32,070 bases of DNA from an uncultured bacterium. GTDB lineage: Bacteria; Gemmatimonadota; Gemmatimonadetes; Gemmatimonadales; Gemmatimonadaceae. The stretch is from assembly GCA_963978095.1 (NCBI GenBank), contig CAXBQP010000035.1, forward strand, positions 1 to 32,070, given 5' to 3'. The notes beneath the pieces are model-generated. The model searched no databases. It saw only the letters and a list, made by a program, of their open reading frames with translations, and was not told where the DNA came from. The position numbers and the translations under genes were made by a program. This document shows positions 2,066 through 10,201 of this stretch, piece by piece; within the stretch, counting starts at the first letter, position 1; every line of letters starts with the position of its first letter.

Positions 2066-2094
2066 TTGCGCGCCGCGTCAAGCGGGTGTATACT
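2066..2094 (+). promoter_or_regulatory. sigma70-type promoter for the riboswitch/AAA operon transcript
   Basis: TTGCGC (2066-2071), 17 bp spacer, TATACT (2089-2094). The predicted start site (~2100-2101) coincides with the first base of riboswitch 1. Confidence 0.75.
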
Positions 2095-2100
2095 ACGGGA

Positions 2101-2190
2101 GCATCAAGATGAGGGACGACCCTCGCCAACCTGCCCGCCCGGGTAAGGTGGATCCCGAAAGGGGATGCGGCCTCCGGCAATCTCACGGGC
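2101..2190 (+). ncRNA. SAM-I/IV-type riboswitch aptamer, copy 1
   Basis: P1 GCAUC(2101-2105)/GAUGC(2164-2168); J1/2 AAGA; P2 GAGGG/CCCUC; P3 core GCCAACCU...AAGGUGG; P4 CCC-GAAA-GGG; P5 GCC-UCC-GGC then AA; loop GCCC (2137-2140) complementary to GGGC (2187-2190), as in PK-2. Matches SAM-I clan core nucleotides and SAM-I/IV architecture by eye. Confidence 0.85.
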
Positions 2191-2202
2191 TGCGCGAGAC
2201 TC

Positions 2203-2240
2203 ACCCTCCTCTGCATGCCAGATGGAGGGTTTTTCTTTTT
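2203..2240 (+). terminator. Intrinsic terminator, expression platform of riboswitch 1
   Basis: ACCCTCC-TCTG-catgc-CAGA-t-GGAGGGT hairpin followed by TTTTCTTTTT. Confidence 0.85.
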
Positions 2241-2278
2241 CCGCCACGGTCGCGGCCCGCGACCGACACGTTCCACCA

Positions 2279-2393
2279 GCATCGCGAGTGAGGCGAACGC
2301 CTCCGCCAACCTCCCCGACCCGGGAAAGGTGGTCCCACCTCCCAAGGTGGCATGCGGCGCCCGGTACTTCCACCGGACGCAACCGAGCGGGTC
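2279..2393 (+). ncRNA. SAM-I/IV-type riboswitch aptamer, copy 2
   Basis: P1 GCAU(2279-2282)/AUGC(2352-2355); J1/2 GCGAG; P2 GAGGCG/CGCCUC; P3 core GCCAACCU...AAGGUGG; P4 CCACCU/AGGUGG; P5 GCGcCCGGU/ACCGGaCGC then AA; loop GACCC (2317-2321) complementary to GGGUC (2389-2393), as in PK-2. Confidence 0.8.
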
Positions 2394-2414
2394 TCGGCAT
2401 GGGAAATCGTTCGT

Positions 2415-2438
2415 GCTCCTCGCCCCACCCAGAGGAGT
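2415..2438 (+). promoter_or_regulatory. Shine-Dalgarno-sequestering hairpin (candidate translational platform of riboswitch 2)
   Basis: GCTCCTC (2415-2421) is complementary to GAGGAGT (2432-2438), which contains the SD of the ATG at 2444. Confidence 0.6.
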
Positions 2439-2443
2439 AGCCC

Positions 2444-3856
2444 ATGACCGCCCCGCACAACATCTTCGCCCGCCTCGGACTCCACGGCTTCGAGCCCCTG
2501 GCTCCAGTCCTCCTCGCCGCGCTCGTGACCGAGGAACCCCTCCTTCTCCTCGGACCGCACGGCACGGCCAAGTCGCTCCTGCTCACGCGCACCGCCGCCG
2601 CCCTCGAGCTCAGCGCCCGGCATTACAACGCGAGTCTGCTCAACTTCGACGACCTCGTCGGATTCCCGATCCCCGGCAAGGACGGCTCCCTCGACTATGC
2701 CAAGACCCCGGCCGCGATCTGGGGGGCCGGTGCCGTCATCTTCGACGAGCTCTCCCGCTGCCGCCCCGAGATCCAGAACAAGCTCTTCCCCATCATCCAC
2801 GAGCGGAAAGTGCAGGGACTTCCACTCGAGGGACTGCGCTACCGCTGGGCCGCCATGAATCCCCCGCTCACCGACGAGAAGTCTCCGACGTACATCGGCA
2901 CCGAGCCGCTCGATGTCGCGCTCGCGGACCGCTTCGCGTTCGTGGTCACCATGCCGGACTGGAGCGCGCTCAGCGAGGCGCAGCAGATCGCCGTGATCCG
3001 CGCCACCGACCTGCCACTCGATCCAGGCATCGGTGAGGAGTTGCGCGCGGTGATCGATCAAGTACGTCGCGTCCGAGCGGCCATTGCGGAGCCCGTCGAA
3101 GCCGCGCTGGCGGACTACACGCGCACGGTCTGCGCGTTGGTCGCGCAGAGCGACATCACCCTCAGTCCGCGGCGCCGCGGCATCATCCTGCGGAACACCC
3201 TCGCCGTCATCGCCGCGGCGGCGGTGATTGCGCCGGATCTGGATATGGCGCGCTGCGCGCTGCTCACACTGCGCTCGTCACTGCCACATCTCGCCTCTGG
3301 CGAGGCGATCGACGATCGGAAGCTCGTGGCGTGCCACCGCGAGGCGTGGGCGGCGCATCCGTGCGCCGAGCTCCGCGAGATCGTCCTCCTGGCCGATCCG
3401 CTCGCGCGCTTCGAGGCCGCGATCGCCGCGCCGACCATCCCGTCGCGTGACTTCTCGTCGATCGTCGCTGACTGTCTCGCACGGATGCGCAGCGGCGAAC
3501 GCTACGCCTCGGCCGTGCACTTGTACGAGAGCAACGCGGCGAGCCGCCTGAACGTCGCCATCGCGGATCAGACCGCTCGCGCATTCAAGCAGATCATGGA
3601 GAATGAGGAACATGGTTTGCACGATGGACTTCAGCGTCATCAGGAGTACGCCGAACCCCTGGGGTATTTCCGCAAGCACGGACACGTCATCGAGCTTCGC
3701 GACGTCCTGTTCCTCGACCCCGATCAGCCGATCGACCTGCCGCAACAATGCGGGGCTGTCGGTCCTGAAGGCAAAGCACTGTTTCGCGAGGACCTGGTGT
3801 CGTTCATCACGGATTTTCGCGCGACCCGTGCGCGGCTCGCGGGGAGGGCCGCATGA
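2444..3856 (+). CDS. MoxR-type AAA+ ATPase
   Basis: Walker A GPHGTAKS, Walker B VIFDELSR, QNKL, sensor AAMNP, arginine finger LDVALADRF, later SPRR. Good SD (AGAGGAG). Confidence 0.9.
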   Translation: MTAPHNIFARLGLHGFEPLAPVLLAALVTEEPLLLLGPHGTAKSLLLTRTAAALELSARHYNASLLNFDDLVGFPIPGKDGSLDYAKTPAAIWGAGAVIFDELSRCRPEIQNKLFPIIHERKVQGLPLEGLRYRWAAMNPPLTDEKSPTYIGTEPLDVALADRFAFVVTMPDWSALSEAQQIAVIRATDLPLDPGIGEELRAVIDQVRRVRAAIAEPVEAALADYTRTVCALVAQSDITLSPRRRGIILRNTLAVIAAAAVIAPDLDMARCALLTLRSSLPHLASGEAIDDRKLVACHREAWAAHPCAELREIVLLADPLARFEAAIAAPTIPSRDFSSIVADCLARMRSGERYASAVHLYESNAASRLNVAIADQTARAFKQIMENEEHGLHDGLQRHQEYAEPLGYFRKHGHVIELRDVLFLDPDQPIDLPQQCGAVGPEGKALFREDLVSFITDFRATRARLAGRAA

Positions 3857-4257
3857 CGACCGCTTCGAACCTCGGGATCGACTGGCGGATCGTGCGGTTC
3901 AGACTGGACGATCGATTCGTCGGACTTTCGCCGGCCGAGTTGCTCGCCGCGCTCGGTCTCTCCGCCGGCGAGGATGCGGAGGCCTCGCTCCAGCGCATCA
4001 TCGAGCGGGTCGCAGCACAACTCACCCTTCCGGATGTCTGTCCCGTCGCGGATTGGACCAGGGCCATCCCCCCTCGTGACGAATTCGTGGAACCGCTCAG
4101 CGCGATCGCGGTCATGGCCAAGTCCTCGCCGCATGTGTGGGTGCGCAGCAAGCTCCCGTTGGTGCACGCGGCGAACGAACGTCATTCCGTGTCGCTCTTT
4201 CTCACCCCAGCGCAACGCCAGCGCTTCCGGCGGAGGGTGCCTCGTGTCACTGCTTGA
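3853..4257 (+). CDS. Hypothetical protein (134 aa) coupled to the AAA+ gene
   Basis: ATGA start/stop overlap with the ATPase, GGGAGG upstream, fills the gap to the next gene. No recognisable motif. Confidence 0.65.
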   Translation: MTTASNLGIDWRIVRFRLDDRFVGLSPAELLAALGLSAGEDAEASLQRIIERVAAQLTLPDVCPVADWTRAIPPRDEFVEPLSAIAVMAKSSPHVWVRSKLPLVHAANERHSVSLFLTPAQRQRFRRRVPRVTA

Positions 4258-5623
4258 ACGGATCCTGAACTGTTTTCCCACCGGCCACTACGCGATCACG
4301 GCGTTCCTGCGCGTGGTGGACATCGTCGAAAGTCGTGACGTCCCGACGGCCGCCATCGAGAACAAGATCTCGCCGCGCATGCTCATCAACCCGGATTTCG
4401 TCGAGCAGCACGCCGAGACGCCGGAGAAATTGCTGATGCTGGTGATGCACGAATTGCATCACATGATGCTCGGGCACACGGTCTCCCACCCTCGGATCAC
4501 GCCGTTCGACAACTTCGTCTTCGATGCGGTCATCAATGGCGTGCTCTGCCAGATGTTTCCGACGCCAGCCTTCACCTCGCTCCTGACCGACTACTACTCG
4601 GAGTCGTTTCCCGAGTGTCTGTTACGCCCCCCTCCGGACTGGCCGGAACAGGGCGGCGTCGCCTTGGGGATCACCGCGTTGCGCGATCCGCGTCAGGTCA
4701 AGGCGGCGGCGGCCGCGCATCGCGGACTGTACTCGGAGGCTGGCTATTCCTACGCGGAGCTCTACGTGTTGCTCTCGTCCTTCGGTCTGGGTTCCGCGCC
4801 GGTCGCGGGGCGACTCCTCGGCGATCACGCGAGCGAGACCGAGCTGGTCCTGGAGAATTCACTGGCGGAGATCGCCGCGGATTTCGGCTCGACCTTCGCT
4901 GAAGAGTTCCCGCACATCTGGACGGACGAGGTGTACATGCGGTACGAGAGACGCGGGACGGCGATGGCTCCGGTCGAACGGATCGTCAAACCGCGGACGA
5001 ACCACCGGAACCGGGCAGCGCTCCGGCGTCTCTTGTCGCGGATCGCACGAGGTGGACGAGGCGGCACCCAGCGGATCATGGACTGGACGGCCCGACCGGT
5101 GGAGCAGGCGATGCCGACCATGGACCGTCGTGCCTCGGTGCAGCGCCTGCTCGGACACCAACCGCTGCTCCATTGGGACGAACGCGTGGCACGGCGCGCG
5201 AACTGTCCCGGCGAGCGGGTGCACGTGTATTTCGATGTTTCGGGCAGCGTCTGGCATCTGCTCGAGGAACTCTACGGCGCCCTATTGGACGTGGAGGCGG
5301 ATGTGCACCCTGTCGTGCATCTGTTCTCGACGCAGGTCTACGATATGCCGATCGAGCGGTTCCGTCGGGGGGCCATGCGCACTTCGCTCGGGACCGAGAT
5401 CACCTGCGTCGCTCGCCATATGGCCAAGTTCGACGTGCGCCGAGCACTGATCGTGACGGACGGCTTCACAGATTCCCCGAGCGGTCGCGATCTGGCCGTC
5501 ATGCGCCGCGCAACCCTCGGCGTCGCCGTCATCAAGGGCGAGCAATGCCAACGTGACTTGGAAAAGGTCGTGGACTTCTGGGGGTTCCTGGAGGTCGATC
5601 CCCCCGTCGCGGCGAGCGCGTGA
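4244..5623 (+). CDS. HExxH metallopeptidase-like N-domain plus vWA (MIDAS) domain protein (DUF2201-like architecture)
   Basis: GTG start at 4244 after GGAGGG; MLINPDFV...VMHELHHMMLGH zincin motif; NFVFDAVIN; C-terminal YFDVSGS, GT and LIVTDG MIDAS residues. Confidence 0.85.
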   Translation: MSLLERILNCFPTGHYAITAFLRVVDIVESRDVPTAAIENKISPRMLINPDFVEQHAETPEKLLMLVMHELHHMMLGHTVSHPRITPFDNFVFDAVINGVLCQMFPTPAFTSLLTDYYSESFPECLLRPPPDWPEQGGVALGITALRDPRQVKAAAAAHRGLYSEAGYSYAELYVLLSSFGLGSAPVAGRLLGDHASETELVLENSLAEIAADFGSTFAEEFPHIWTDEVYMRYERRGTAMAPVERIVKPRTNHRNRAALRRLLSRIARGGRGGTQRIMDWTARPVEQAMPTMDRRASVQRLLGHQPLLHWDERVARRANCPGERVHVYFDVSGSVWHLLEELYGALLDVEADVHPVVHLFSTQVYDMPIERFRRGAMRTSLGTEITCVARHMAKFDVRRALIVTDGFTDSPSGRDLAVMRRATLGVAVIKGEQCQRDLEKVVDFWGFLEVDPPVAASA

Positions 5624-5696
5624 ACGACGATGACGGACCCTATGGATGTTCGCGCTGTCGCCAACACCCTCCCCAACAACTTGTGGACGCATCAAA

Positions 5697-5722
5697 AAAT
5701 ATTATGATATTGGATAATATTT
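5697..5722. promoter_or_regulatory. AT-rich inverted repeat abutting the start codon of the HTH-like ORF (putative operator/promoter)
   Basis: AAATATTAT (5697-5705), 8 bp spacer, ATAATATTT (5714-5722), then ATG at 5723. Contains TATGAT and GATAAT -10-like hexamers. Confidence 0.55.
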
Positions 5723-6163
5723 ATGAAAATCATCGTGAGCACCGCTGCCCTAGCGCTCGGGGTCTCCCCCACTCGGCTCCGTCTCTTCCTCTCCCGACAC
5801 GGCCCCCACTTGGCCGGAGAACCGTCGGCACGCCGCCAAGGGCGCCGCCGCCCCATCCCGGAGCAGGCGCTCGAACCACTCCTCCTGGCCTTCCTCCTCG
5901 CCCGCGACCTCCGGATCCCGGATGGACCCGCCCTTCAGCTCGCCGAACGACTGCTCAAGGCCGACTCCGCTGCCAGCCCACAGAAGTCCGTCGGAGCCGG
6001 TCCAGCACCCGCCACCATCGAACTCTCTCCGATCCTCCGACTCTCCGCCGACCTCCCCGCCCTCCGCCTCCACCTCCGCCACGCCATCGCCGACGCCCTC
6101 GAAGCCGCGCCCCCTCCCCCGCCCCGCGGCCGGCCGCGTCGTGGCGCTATAAGGACCCGTTGA
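5723..6163 (+). CDS. Small hypothetical protein with HTH/MerR-like N-terminus
   Basis: VSTAALALGVSPTRLRLFL resembles a helix-turn-helix, followed by RQGRRR; C-terminal PPRGRPRR is AT-hook-like. Confidence 0.55.
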   Translation: MKIIVSTAALALGVSPTRLRLFLSRHGPHLAGEPSARRQGRRRPIPEQALEPLLLAFLLARDLRIPDGPALQLAERLLKADSAASPQKSVGAGPAPATIELSPILRLSADLPALRLHLRHAIADALEAAPPPPPRGRPRRGAIRTR

Positions 6164-7178
6164 CCCGCGCTTCGAGCGCCGCCAGTCGATCCAGAAGATC
6201 CTCGAAGCTTGGGGGCTCCCCGAAGAACATCTCCCGCATCTTTCGGTAATCCTCGCCAAGCGCGCTCACGCGCTCCGGTGCCGGGAGCAAGCGAAGCGTT
6301 CCTGATCTGGCGGTGTGGTAGTTCGCCCAGCCGGAAGCGAAGAACAGGGACTTATTCTCGACGACCGTTTCCAAGAGGTCCCTTCGGTCCAAGGCGGCAC
6401 TCCCCACCGCTGATTCGGCGAGCACCGCCATGTCGAAATAGTGTCGCGCGAGCCGTGCCGGCAGCGCCTTCTCCTTGGGGCGGTGATATTCGGCGTGGAG
6501 AATCGTGGCTTTCTCCCAGAAGGTGCGCTCGGCGGCAAGCGTTCGAACGCCACCCACCGACTCGCGCACCGTGTCCGGAAATGCGTCTGCGCAGTACGAG
6601 GTGATCTCGCGCGACTCGACGGGCCACGGCTCTGAGCGGGCACCGAGCTCGAGCCTGACGGTCGGCATGATATAGTCGGCGTTGCCATACACCTCCGCGC
6701 TGAACGCCCGCGGGTAGGCGAATAGGAGTGTCGCCTCCGACATCCCGTCAACGCGCAGGTCAACGCTCTCCCCGATGAGGCGGTGCGACATCGCCGCGGC
6801 AATCTCCCGGAGGAACGGACCCGCCGCCCACTCTCGCAACGCGGGGGCGATTGCGTCGATGATCCGCCGCGCCTCGGCGCTGGATGGTGCGGTGCGGGGG
6901 TCAAGAGGATGCTCGCTGATGACGGTCCTAGCGACCGACAGGTCGATGTCTTCGGAGAAGCGGTCGACTAGGCGATAGACTTTCGAGAGGCTCGTTCCTC
7001 CCTTGAAAACCAAGACATCGCGATAGGCGCTCTGGAAGACGAGGTCCAGGGCCCAGCACACCCAGTAGTCCTTTTCGATGGCGATCGGGGAGGTGATTCC
7101 CGTTCTCGCTGCCGTTTCGGTGAAGAGTTCGGCACGGTCCTCTGCGCGCCATTGCGCCACGGACGTCAGCTTGCCCAC
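6147..7178 (-). CDS. abiEii: AbiEii-family nucleotidyltransferase toxin (type IV TA)
   Basis: IEKDYWV, LVFKGGTSLSKVY, DRFSEDIDL, ERTFWEKATILH and RHYFD motifs. GTG start directly follows the antitoxin stop. Confidence 0.92.
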   Translation of the reverse strand: MGKLTSVAQWRAEDRAELFTETAARTGITSPIAIEKDYWVCWALDLVFQSAYRDVLVFKGGTSLSKVYRLVDRFSEDIDLSVARTVISEHPLDPRTAPSSAEARRIIDAIAPALREWAAGPFLREIAAAMSHRLIGESVDLRVDGMSEATLLFAYPRAFSAEVYGNADYIMPTVRLELGARSEPWPVESREITSYCADAFPDTVRESVGGVRTLAAERTFWEKATILHAEYHRPKEKALPARLARHYFDMAVLAESAVGSAALDRRDLLETVVENKSLFFASGWANYHTARSGTLRLLPAPERVSALGEDYRKMREMFFGEPPSFEDLLDRLAALEARVNGSL

Positions 7179-7787
7179 TCACCCCTCCGTCGCGATTCGG
7201 CGAATCGCCGAGTGGAGCCAACCGGGGGCATGGCGGATCATCCCGAGCAGCGCGCGCTTGTCGGCCGGTCGCAGCGTTGCGGCGAGCCGATGGATCACGG
7301 TGTCATCGACGCCGCCCGTTCCCAAGTACGAAAGTGCGCGAATCACATCGTCGGCCACACCGCTCGGACGGCCCAGCTTCGAAGGCGCGCGATGGACAAG
7401 GCGCATGGTCCTGCCCTGCACCGTGACGGTCCGCGATCGACCGGTCGTCTCGAGCACCGTACGCATCGGCACTTGCGTGCTCACGCCGAGCGCGTTCGCC
7501 ACCTGGGCTGCTGACGACTTGAGCGTGGCGCCGCTCCTGCGAGCGAGTGCCCGCTCCACCGCTTTCGGACTCGGAGCCAAGACCCCCAGTCGAGCGCTGG
7601 TCTTGGGATAGTCGTAGAGCCCCCGTCCGATGCGGCGTAGCTGGCCGGCGCGGACGAGGCGACTCAACGCTTGATCGACTGATGCTCGCGAAGCTAGATC
7701 AACGAAGTCGCGCGGTGTACACACGTGTCCTCGTCCGAATCGACGAATACGCGCAAGTATTTTATCGACAACGCTTTGGTAGGTCAT
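7179..7787 (-). CDS. abiEi: AbiEi-family antitoxin / transcriptional regulator (DUF6088-like)
   Basis: Winged-HTH N-terminus SVDQALSRLVRAGQLRRIGRGLYDYP and ANALGVSTQVP; lies immediately upstream of abiEii. Start at MTYQ (7787). Confidence 0.88.
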   Translation of the reverse strand: MTYQSVVDKILARIRRFGRGHVCTPRDFVDLASRASVDQALSRLVRAGQLRRIGRGLYDYPKTSARLGVLAPSPKAVERALARRSGATLKSSAAQVANALGVSTQVPMRTVLETTGRSRTVTVQGRTMRLVHRAPSKLGRPSGVADDVIRALSYLGTGGVDDTVIHRLAATLRPADKRALLGMIRHAPGWLHSAIRRIATEG

Positions 7788-7801
7788 AATGCCGTGGTTT
7801 T

Positions 7802-7831
7802 TGTCAGATAAATATATGCGAATATCTGACA
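7802..7831. promoter_or_regulatory. Inverted-repeat operator upstream of abiEi
   Basis: TGTCAGATA (7802-7810), 12 bp spacer, TATCTGACA (7823-7831), 14 bp upstream of the start codon. AbiEi proteins are known to autoregulate through inverted repeats. Confidence 0.7.
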
Positions 7832-7880
7832 TTCGCAACCCTGGTTCGCGCGCAGATCGGCATCGAGACCCCACGAAGCC

Positions 7881-8158: not shown

Positions 8159-8389
8159 TCCCAACTCCTGTGTGATGATTGATGCAGGGAGCGGAACACG
8201 CCGTACCCTGACAATCTGTTCTACTTCGCGGGATCCATGAGATCCCCCGCGATGGACCGCTGCGCACCCCCAGTCAAGAACCGAGTGACAATGCGCAACC
8301 CTGAGAACCTACAGATATCCAGTCAAAAGTGCAAGAGCCCGCCCGCCGGCGTGCCCGACCCCGGCAACTCCTCAGGTCCTGACCCCCCC

Positions 8390-8800
8390 CTATGGGATCA
8401 CCTTCACCCCGGAGACGAAGTACTGGGTCTCGCCGAAACAACTCGTCGGGACTCCCACATGCTGTCGGTAGGTCAGGACCACGCGGTGGTTCTGCACCAT
8501 GGCCTCATTGATCACCCCGGCGATCGAGTCGTTCCGCACCGAGAAGTTGAACATCTGGCTCATCGCCCCCGGCATGTTCACCATCGCCAGCTCCCCTTCC
8601 CACGTCTTGCAGACCCACCCCTTCTGGGAGAGCTTCTGCAGGAACCCCGAGCGCTCGCCGCTCGAATAGGTGAAGGTCATGGCGGCGCCGGCCCAGATCG
8701 TGAAGATGAGCGCGGGCACGAGGATCAGGGTGGTGAGCGTCAGCTTCCCCCAGTGACGGCTGAAGAAGCTGGAAGCGGGGCGTGGAGTGGCGTCGGCCAT
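8390..8800 (-). CDS. Conserved hypothetical single-pass membrane protein
   Basis: N-terminal hydrophobic helix, then [27 protein letters not shown]...FNFSV...GETQYFV. Clean high-GC codon pattern. Confidence 0.75.
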
Positions 8801-8983
8801 GGTCGGGTGCACGGGAGCTGGGGGACAATCCGCGGGGCGCCCTTCGCGCGCCCGCATCGCTGGGTCCGGCCTTCCGTACGGCTCCAGCTCGTAGGAAGTT
8901 GCGCCCCAGCCCCCGCCCCGCCAAGTGGGTGGCTATTTTTCCATCGATCCCCTGCCCCACCTCCGGACCCGAAAGGAGTGCCT

Positions 8984-10201
8984 GTGGTCTTCACGTCCCG
9001 ACGCAAGACAGTCACCGCGATGGTCGGTCAGGTGCCGGTGGGTTCGGCGCACCCGATCGTCGTGCAATCCATGACGAACACGGACACCGCCGATCCGGCG
9101 AGCACCGCCGCGCAGATCGCCGCCCTCGCGACGGCGGGTTCGCAGTTGGTGCGCATCACCGTCAACAACGACGAGGCCGCCGCGGCCGTGCCCGAGATCG
9201 TGCAGCGCTGCGCCGACCTCGGGTGCACGGTGCCGATCATCGGCGACTTCCACTACAACGGGCATCTGTTGCTGGTGAAGTACCCCGAGACGGCGCGCGC
9301 GCTGGCCAAGTACCGCATCAATCCCGGGAACGTGGGGGCCAAGCGCCGCGACGACAACTTCCGCACGATCGTGCAGGTCGCGGTCGACCACGACAAGCCG
9401 GTGCGGATCGGCGTGAACTGGGGATCGCTCGATCAGGACCTGCTGACCTCCATGATGGACGCGAATGCCGCGCTGGCGCAGCCGGCTGACGCGAAGGACG
9501 TCTACATGGAAGCGATGCTCGAGTCGGCGCTCCGGTCAGCGGCGCTCGCCGAAGAGGTGGGGCTCGCGCATGACCGGATCATCATCTCGGCCAAGATCTC
9601 GCAGGTCCAGGATCTGCTCGACTGCTATCGCCGGCTCGCGGTGCGCTGCGACTATCCGTTGCACCTCGGCCTCACCGAAGCGGGACTCGGCACCAAAGGG
9701 GTGGTCGCCACGACCGCCGCGCTCTCGCTCGTCTTGGCCGACGGGATCGGCGACACGATCCGCGTGTCGCTCACGCCGCGACCGGGCGGCGATCGCACGG
9801 AAGAGGTGTTCGTCGCGCAACAGGTGTTGCAGTCCCTCGGCTTGCGATCCTTCACACCGCAGGTGACGGCGTGCCCCGGCTGTGGTCGGACGACGTCCAC
9901 CTTCTTTCAGAAGATGGCCGAGGATATCCAGGGGTATCTGCGCGAGCAGATGCCCGTGTGGCGCGGGGTGCATCCCGGCGTGGAAGAAATGAAGGTGGCC
10001 GTGATGGGATGCGTGGTGAATGGTCCCGGCGAGTCGAAACACGCGAACATCGGGATCTCGCTCCCCGGGACGTTCGAGGAGCCCAAAGCGCCGGTGTACG
10101 TGGACGGTGCGTTGCGCGTCACGCTCAAGGGGGACCACATCGTGCCGGAGTTCCTGGAGATCCTGAACGGCTACGTGGAGCAGCGGTATCCGAAGGCGTG
10201 A
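8984..10201 (+). CDS. ispG: (E)-4-hydroxy-3-methylbut-2-enyl-diphosphate synthase
   Basis: [64 protein letters not shown] start after AAGGAG. Confidence 0.97.

Follow-up and report, generated by a model that had tools for sequence, protein, structure and literature searches.

Why should a single mRNA leader carry two aptamers of the same class, each followed by a different kind of expression platform? This question is raised by a 32,070-nucleotide stretch of DNA from an uncultured member of the Gemmatimonadaceae (GenBank assembly GCA_963978095.1, contig CAXBQP010000035.1, positions 1 to 32,070; hereafter the window). Here a leader of 384 bases (2060-2443) fills the intergenic region between an asparaginase-like gene on the minus strand (710-2059) and the start of an operon at position 2444 on the plus strand. 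The source genome (G000) is a 2.98-Mb assembly that is 91% complete. A first reading of the letters alone (the original prediction) placed in this leader two aptamers for S-adenosylmethionine (SAM), with a transcription terminator behind the first and sequestration of the ribosome binding site (RBS) behind the second. Taking covariance model searches, comparison with relatives, and predicted folds together, we interpret the leader as a series of two SAM-I/IV riboswitches on one transcript, independent of each other and both turned OFF by SAM, and we put the probability of this interpretation at roughly 0.78. From the same comparisons we infer both the identity of the ligand and the direction of switching.

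A scan of the full window against Rfam (cmscan) returned exactly two matches at or above the gathering score, both to the SAM-I/IV family (RF01725; gathering score, 41.1 bits) and both on the plus strand. Aptamer 1 (2096-2194; 46.8 bits, E = 8.9e-05) and aptamer 2 (2274-2396; 43.9 bits, E = 0.00038) each match the model over its positions 1-99, bearing out the claim that two complete aptamers are present. In aptamer 1, P1 is formed by 2101-2105/2164-2168, P2 by 2111-2115/2120-2124, and P3 by 2126-2135/2142-2151, followed by a junction hairpin, P4 (2154-2156/2161-2163), and by P5 (2170-2172/2176-2178); in the pseudoknot PK-2, GCCC at 2137-2140 pairs with GGGC at 2187-2190. These pairs were verified letter by letter. 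The same helices recur in aptamer 2, where both the junction hairpin and the last hairpin are longer: P1 is 2279-2282/2352-2355, P2 is 2290-2294/2299-2303, P3 is 2306-2316/2322-2332, P4 is 2335-2339/2346-2350, and P5 is 2357-2364/2373-2380 (helix pairs checked), and PK-2 joins GACCC at 2317-2321 to GGGUC at 2389-2393. The core motif GCCAACCT is found at 2125 in copy 1 and 2305 in copy 2, and AAGGTGG is found at 2145 and 2326. All coordinates of the original prediction proved correct, including these core motifs, the PK-2 partners, CTGCAT at 2211, ATGCGG at 2165, and GAGGAG at 2432.

Both copies contain P1, P2, P3, and the conserved core of RF01725, the sole exception being a single C.A mismatch in the P3 helix of copy 2. 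In each, P2 forms a simple hairpin of 5 pairs, without the internal loop (kink-turn) found in SAM-I and SAM-IV. The tandem A-U/U-A pairs of P1 (alignment columns 8-97 and 9-96), which we take to recognize the sulfonium group of SAM, are likewise kept in both. In the family as described in PMC2864571, P2 also lacks an internal loop, and the two elements resemble it in their P1-P3 core, in the hairpin that follows P1, and in the pseudoknot that links the loop of P3 to the 3' tail. They differ from the RF01725 model in an extra hairpin inserted between P3 and the 3' strand of P1 and in falling into two subtypes, each tied to a platform.

Comparative material came from two further genomes of the same genus (G022 and G026) and from 80 loci of the family of the ATPase encoded by the first gene of the operon (L-numbered loci, taken from a species-level genome collection and forming a subset of 502 confirmed stretches; L022 belongs to the isolate Limnohabitans sp. 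2KL-51). We aligned 33 aptamers, all of them Rfam matches, 6 from the genus and 27 from other loci, and counted a hand-written structure of 29 pairs on this alignment, with 500 shuffles and with controls in which the pairing partners were slid. Paired cells amounted to 88.9%, compared with 80.1% in shuffles and 34-46% with slid partners. Compensatory change on both sides was seen in 19 of the 29 pairs, and none of the 500 shuffles reached the observed covariation score; PK-2 was paired in 96.8% of cells, with both-sided change in 3/3 of its pairs, figures that overstate independence because the aptamers are related and the structure was written with the sequences in view. We nevertheless regard the covariation signal as strong, and it corroborates the proposal that the two copies differ in P2, P4, P5, and PK-2 while pairing is kept. 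All 17 invariant columns of the alignment are present in both copies.

Each aptamer is followed by a platform of its own. Behind aptamer 1 lies a predicted intrinsic terminator (2203-2240, plus strand), with a stem formed by 2203-2209/2224-2230, inner CUG/CAG pairing, and then the run TTTTTCTTTTT at 2230-2240; the hairpin at 2203-2230 has a predicted energy of -16.0 kcal/mol, and scripted detection places a terminator at 2230. A simple terminator scanner run over 1800-2600 made no call; it demands an unbroken stem and a loop of 3 to 8 bases and so misses this hairpin, the stem of which has a bulge. Behind aptamer 2, a hairpin at 2414-2439 (plus strand; 8 pairs, -11.1 kcal/mol) joins an anti-Shine-Dalgarno (anti-SD) segment, CUCCUC at 2416-2421, to the Shine-Dalgarno (SD) sequence GAGGAG at 2432-2437, so that the whole of GAGGAG, six bases ahead of the ATG at 2444, is paired. 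The order of the two separate platforms, terminator first and SD sequestration second, is that of the original prediction.

Predicted folds suggest how each aptamer might be coupled to its platform. In the minimum-energy folds of 2096-2216, 2096-2220, and 2096-2223, the 5' half of aptamer 1 (2101-2115, comprising the P1 5' strand, J1/2, and the P2 5' strand) is paired with 2204-2218. For the transcript ending at 2223, this candidate antiterminator fold reaches -53.0 kcal/mol, versus -46.7 kcal/mol for the aptamer fold. A comparable relationship is visible in relatives: the P2 5' strand and loop have their reverse complement in the segment just 3' of the first aptamer subtype (subtype A, defined below), which covaries with them and extends into the 5' arm of the terminator, for example in L012, L031, L037, L050, L073, and L086. 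The original prediction had chosen a different antiterminator, in which ATGCGG (2165-2170) in the P1 3' strand pairs with CTGCAT (2211-2216), a pairing that is possible because GCAU is self-complementary. Enforcing it yielded -49.1 kcal/mol versus -55.3 kcal/mol for the pairing of the 5' half, a cost of about 6 kcal/mol, and it is not conserved beyond the genus. We keep it as a less likely alternative; the partner in the antiterminator is probably the 5' half of the aptamer, 2101-2115, and not ATGCGG.

For aptamer 2, the minimum-energy folds of 2274-2423 and 2274-2431 pair 2284-2299 (J1/2, the P2 5' strand, and the P2 loop) with 2408-2423, thereby holding the anti-SD. This proposed anti-sequestor duplex comprises 15 pairs and two single-base bulges. 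At full length (2274-2446), the anti-sequestor state is predicted at -66.9 kcal/mol and the state with aptamer and SD hairpin at -67.8 kcal/mol; such near-equality, within less than 1 kcal/mol, fits the need of a translational switch.

If these modeled pairings form in the cell, switch 1 would act during transcription. Without SAM, 2101-2115 would pair with 2204-2218 and block the terminator; with SAM bound, P1 and P2 would be held in the aptamer, the hairpin at 2203-2230 would form, and polymerase would halt in the U-run at 2230-2240. Switch 2 would act on the finished mRNA. Without SAM, 2284-2299 would pair with 2408-2423, so that the anti-SD is held and GAGGAG stays free; with SAM bound, the aptamer would retain 2284-2299, CUCCUC at 2416-2421 would pair with GAGGAG at 2432-2437, and translation of the ATPase gene from 2444 would be blocked. 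Two OFF switches in series would permit expression of the operon only when SAM is low at both steps. The original prediction saw in this double lock a means to very low leak and a sharper response, as would suit a costly or toxic output, a purpose that it may serve.

The pair of aptamers is not confined to one genome. A doublet with the same platforms is present in G022 and G026, and doublets were found in other phyla in L009 (Xanthobacteraceae), in L020 and L030 (gammaproteobacterial), and in L013 (alphaproteobacterial), where a gene lies between the copies; because the same doublet and platforms recur in two genomes of the genus and in other phyla, the pairing is more than chance. Two subtypes can be told apart: subtype A, to which copy 1 belongs, has a short junction hairpin, and in subtype B the junction hairpin is longer and J1/2 differs. 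A phylogeny of the 33 aptamers (FastTree) places the subtype B copies in one clade (support, 0.987) that includes copy 2 of G000. This copy is 81% identical to the second copy of L013 and 65% identical to its own neighbor, copy 1, which in turn is 76-77% identical to the first copies in L009 and L013. Each copy is nearer to copies from other phyla than to its partner; the duplication is therefore old, in keeping with the original claim that it is no fresh one, and the pair appears to have moved between phyla as a unit.

Alongside this comparison, we surveyed platforms by labeling subtypes from the aptamer sequence alone and then scanning by script the 110 bases 3' of 41 aptamers. A hairpin followed by a T-run lies 3' of 23 of the 33 subtype A aptamers, and the hairpins of 11 of these 23 additionally contain an SD that precedes a start codon; the other subtype A aptamers comprise 7 with neither feature and 3 with a buried SD only. 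Subtype B shows the reverse, with a terminator-like site in 0/8 and an SD inside a hairpin in 8/8, counts that are inflated by close kin (near-identical G022/L016 and G026; likewise L020 and L030), the eight subtype B copies representing about 5 to 6 lineages. Subtype B is the promoter-distal copy of the doublets and stands alone behind its own promoter in L051. Sequence comparison thus indicates that the SAM-I/IV pair is made up of two old subtypes, both present in several phyla and each tied to one platform. This comparative anatomy lends good support to a pair of locks that act in turn on transcription and on translation.

Other features of the leader are also conserved. A putative promoter, read from the sequence, consists of TTGCGC at 2066-2071, a 17-base spacer, and TATACT at 2089-2094 (plus strand), and it ends about 6 bases ahead of P1 of aptamer 1. 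The TTGCGC block is kept in alignments with G026 and G022, as is the terminator at 2203-2240; a consensus sigma-70 scanner made no promoter call within 1800-2600, and a metagenome strain variant (2091 T>A) falls within the putative promoter. Between the two switches, a G+C-rich spacer hairpin at 2248-2264 (plus strand; 7 pairs, 3-base loop, -10.7 kcal/mol) is kept in G026 and G022 with a single change, in the loop, and may insulate the folding of one switch from that of the other. Leader DNA of G000 is about 76-80% identical to that of G022 and G026, compared with only 58-59% identity for the AAA+ protein. Strain variants from metagenome contigs of other studies lie at 2116, 2137, 2143, and 2345, all in loops of the two aptamers (those of P2, of P3, and of the junction hairpin in copy 2), with none reported in helices. 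This pattern of identity and the placement of variants in loops indicate that the leader is under selection, which supports its interpretation as a pair of working switches.

In G000, the leader precedes three overlapping genes, all on the plus strand. Gene 1 (2444-3856) encodes a MoxR-type AAA+ ATPase of 470 residues (Pfam AAA_5, E = 2.4e-09, 37.8 bits against a cut-off of 22), with a match to bpMoxR at 26 bits, just below the cut-off of 27; its family is large, and of 8000 scored candidates, 2851 are relatives at E ≤ 0.001. Gene 2 (3853-4257), whose start overlaps the gene 1 stop (ATGA), encodes a small protein of 134 residues that gave no Pfam, NCBIfam, or PADLOC match and has tblastn matches at the same position in many loci. 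Gene 3 (4244-5623) encodes 459 residues that include an HExxH motif and, toward the C terminus, a VWA-like part, from a GTG start at 4244 set by comparison with G026. A frameshift joining open reading frames (ORFs) 3853-4257 and 3974-5623 was considered and rejected, as G026 shows two genes, the second from the GTG corresponding to 4244. Pfam matches for gene 3 are all below cut-off: DUF2201_N (0.014) in G000, and DUF2201_N (0.00053), DUF2201 (0.0063), and VWA_CoxE (0.013) in the G026 orthologue. No VWA match was obtained in Pfam for the G000 protein itself. NCBIfam gave only a sub-threshold match to GvpN, and PADLOC, run on five proteins, returned nothing.

The operons of G022 and G026 are longer. 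There a fourth gene, whose start overlaps the stop of the third, encodes a 369-residue paralogue of the SAM synthetase MetK, which carries all three S-AdoMet synthetase domains and has SAM synthetases as its best PDB matches (E = 2e-35). The G000 operon ends after the HExxH/VWA-like gene, as seen when 5620-6250 was compared with L007 and L008, and fragmentary metagenome contigs from another study, X5 (5550-5749) and X2 (5470-5948), bridge the end of gene 3. The only match to the paralogue in the G000 assembly was the ordinary metK on another contig, at 32% identity; because this genome is 91% complete, absence of the paralogue is unproven. The order ATPase, VWA-like protein, and MetK paralogue was found in 45 of the 80 loci. 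Among 52 loci with at least 1.2 kb of sequence 3' of the VWA-like gene, seven (L038, L044, L072, L073, L074, L080, and L083) are missing the paralogue, and the three-gene form of G000 is therefore a recurring minority form.

Some MoxR AAA+ ATPases with VWA partners serve one client enzyme, as do CbbQ-CbbO, NorQ-NorD, and CoxD-CoxE. The operon resembles these systems in that an AAA_5/MoxR ATPase gene stands beside a VWA-like gene and, in most loci, beside one enzyme gene, that of the MetK paralogue. It differs in that the VWA and metallopeptidase matches fall below Pfam cut-offs and in that the gene for the candidate client is absent from the G000 operon.

The distribution of the operon points to horizontal transfer. 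We compared 61 genomes from the genus, the family, and the order: the same three have both the riboswitch doublet and the ATPase gene (E ≤ 1e-30), and the others have neither. Comparison of G000 with G022 and G026 detected no synteny outside the cassette. These comparisons indicate that the operon is a laterally spread cassette. Within the 2.98-Mb G000 assembly, RF01725 has no matches beyond the two of the window, and neither SAM-I nor SAM-IV matches were found in this 91% complete genome. Two sub-threshold matches to SAM-II (RF00521; cut-off, 36 bits), at C27:15356-15430 on the minus strand (35.3 bits) and at C41:19678-19752 on the plus strand (33.5 bits), may represent SAM sensors native to the host. 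The operon is bordered immediately downstream by a convergent pair of genes for an AbiEii toxin (PF08843, 4.3e-39) and an AbiEi/DUF6088 antitoxin (6147-7874, minus strand), neighbors that fit a variable, laterally acquired region. Further along lies a gene for a GcpE (IspG) homologue of 654 residues (8237-10201, plus strand), in which the Pfam match covers residues 260-643 only; this leaves a long N-terminal stretch unaccounted for, unless translation in fact starts further downstream.

Predicted SAM sensors precede the cassette in most loci. At the Rfam gathering score, SAM-I/IV was detected in 17/17 loci preselected by the core motif and SAM-I/IV or SAM-I in 8 of 20 loci without that motif, several of these 20 having little upstream sequence. 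When the 33 aptamers were used to train a covariance model, a search of 82 sources yielded 66 matches, every one on the gene strand and half of them (33) the training sequences themselves. Canonical SAM-I (RF00162, above cut-off) lies ahead of the cassette in L057, L062, L070, and L085. These are loci of the Planctomycetota type (L070 at 261-677 and L085 at 1267-1703, together with L062 and L057), in which SAM-I/IV is followed by SAM-I or two SAM-I elements occur, all above cut-offs.

In many other loci, an element resembling SAM-II or SAM-V, often ending in the SD, replaces the second SAM-I/IV copy (examples: L011 at 5008-5053; L031 at 424-470; L017 at 259-305 and 620-667; L014 at 926-973; L040 at 3470-3512). 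A loose pattern for this second element, which often overlaps the SD, matched 53 times on the gene strand versus once on the other strand in 787 kb; Rfam scores were all sub-threshold (SAM_V, 33.8 and 32.6 bits; SAM_alpha, 27.5 bits; three instances). The arrangement of SAM-I/IV and then a SAM-II-like element is thus also found ahead of the cassette. Combining covariance model matches, two Rfam SAM-I matches, and the loose pattern, and excluding 14 loci with short upstream sequence, we counted, among the 66 loci that offer 700 or more bases of upstream sequence, 63 with one or more predicted SAM sensors (two in 22 and three in 9); the loose pattern is unvalidated and these counts are rough. 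Loci with three predicted sensors (L013, L022, L028, L037, L043, L054, L056, L084, and L086) have additional small genes, located after the first sensor and ahead of the ATPase gene; one in L086 is an ORF that starts near 3521, right 3' of the terminator. SAM as the probable ligand has indirect support in that other SAM aptamer classes precede the cassette and 45/80 loci end in the MetK paralogue.

Several observations weigh against two working switches in series in this organism, the kinship behind the platform counts among them. At full length, the terminator fold of copy 1 is favored even without ligand (-61.4 versus -55.3 kcal/mol for the antiterminator); since the terminator fold wins once its 3' arm has been made, read-through must be kinetic, with the choice made during transcription. 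The loop part of the antiterminator complementarity that is typical of the family is eroded in G000, and compared with shuffled sequences the G000 duplexes have modest z-scores (copy 1, -1.9; copy 2, -1.1). The rules for intrinsic terminators derive from other phyla. Among the public sequencing runs listed as containing this stretch, none is of RNA. Copy 2 scores lowest of all copies and has its mismatch, C2313.A2325, beside the conserved bulged A of P3. Finally, the G000 operon contains no known SAM-metabolism gene.

Some of these points would follow if only one lock worked in G000, with copy 2 decaying, or with the terminator of copy 1 acting as a constitutive attenuator, and the tandem being a cassette-borne relic. 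The 43.9-bit score of copy 2, a C.A at a position occupied by G-C or G-U in 31 of 32 distinct aligned sequences, an antiterminator in copy 1 without the loop complementarity of relatives, and the loss or original lack of the MetK paralogue gene in the operon are all in line with a single working lock. On the other side, both copies score above the gathering threshold and retain every invariant column, metagenome contigs over the leader are unchanged at 2313 and 2325, their differences being seen in loops, and the G000 sequence itself is still predicted to adopt both alternative folds. We therefore consider loss of one lock unlikely, and two functioning switches remain our preferred interpretation.

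A second explanation is that the two switches do not act in series: copy 2 might be driven on its own by an internal promoter, or copy 1 and its terminator might be mainly a trans-acting small RNA. The L009 spacer does contain a possible promoter (TTAGTC-18-TAGAAT), and in one SAM-II case terminated riboswitch transcripts have been reported to act as small RNAs (PMC9373788). In G000, however, the spacer at 2241-2273 is G+C-rich, mostly hairpin, and devoid of any promoter-like site, and the lone subtype B copy of L051 behind its own promoter suggests that an internal promoter would be visible if present. Separate transcripts accordingly seem to us quite improbable, and we retain the reading of two switches on one RNA. 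Least probable of all is that the aptamers sense SAH (S-adenosylhomocysteine) or another SAM-derived compound, or some other non-SAM ligand, as might be imagined from the odd association with a MoxR-type ATPase and a VWA-like protein and from rare SAM-I variants with odd gene associations that sense spermidine (PMC10853860), given that the core columns are those of the family, that the P1 tandem A-U/U-A is kept in both copies, that unrelated SAM aptamer classes precede the cassette in other phyla, and that the cassette usually ends in a MetK paralogue.

The principle of this leader has precedents. As described in PMC9481103, "bi-mechanism" SAM-II/SAM-V tandems of "Candidatus Pelagibacter ubique" and marine metagenomes place a terminator first and translational control second. 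The G000 leader has the anatomy by which that paper defines the arrangement, here in silico: two riboswitches with their own platforms, terminator and then RBS occlusion. It resembles the SAM-II/SAM-V tandem in that a single leader bears two successive sensors for one ligand, both OFF (here a prediction). It differs in that both aptamers belong to one class with the SAM-I/IV junction fold, not to two pseudoknot classes, and in that it precedes an uncharacterized operon of AAA+ and VWA type, not genes of methionine or sulfur metabolism. The tandem counts given in PMC9481103 include 149 SAM-II/SAM-V pairs, 44 SAM-II doublets, some with mixed platforms, 164 SAM-I doublets, 7 cases of SAM-II followed by SAM-I/IV, and 2 of SAM-I/IV followed by SAM-II; these other catalogued tandems follow the same principle, and SAM-I/IV is thus already a known tandem partner. 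Two SAM-I/IV elements in succession are absent from the main tables of PMC9481103, the supplements of which may list such a case. The available text of PMC12452182, which pools all SAM classes, does not mention the operon. In the open-access literature, we found no paper linking the MoxR cassette to SAM synthetase or to a riboswitch and none on a SAM-I/IV tandem riboswitch. Tandem control by SAM through a terminator and then translation is therefore already published; the homotypic SAM-I/IV pair and the genes it guards appear to be undescribed.

What the double control means for the genes behind it can be framed only tentatively. One possible account is that the doublet is the head of a laterally mobile, undescribed low-SAM module composed of the MoxR ATPase, the small protein, the HExxH/VWA protein, and usually the MetK paralogue. 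Two ancient SAM-I/IV sublineages would have specialized, one in termination and the other in translation, and traveled with the module across phyla, the second lock being replaced elsewhere by SAM-I or SAM-II/V-like sensors. That loci so often carry two or three SAM sensors suggests a module that has to be silent unless SAM is truly scarce. If so, this behavior would fit an ATP-driven remodeler or maturase of SAM synthetase, and three-gene forms like that of G000 would have the housekeeping MetK, or some other client, as their target.

Tandem switches that act on transcription and then on translation are a textbook case of tight, energy-saving control. A homotypic pair in which aptamer subtype is tied to mechanism offers a clean system for studying the coevolution of aptamer and platform. 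Beyond this leader, a four-gene cassette found in many phyla is guarded by predicted sensors of up to three SAM aptamer classes, and this guarding places the cassette within SAM homeostasis and opens its function to experimental test. The main value of the finding may thus be as a pointer to an unstudied, SAM-linked cassette.

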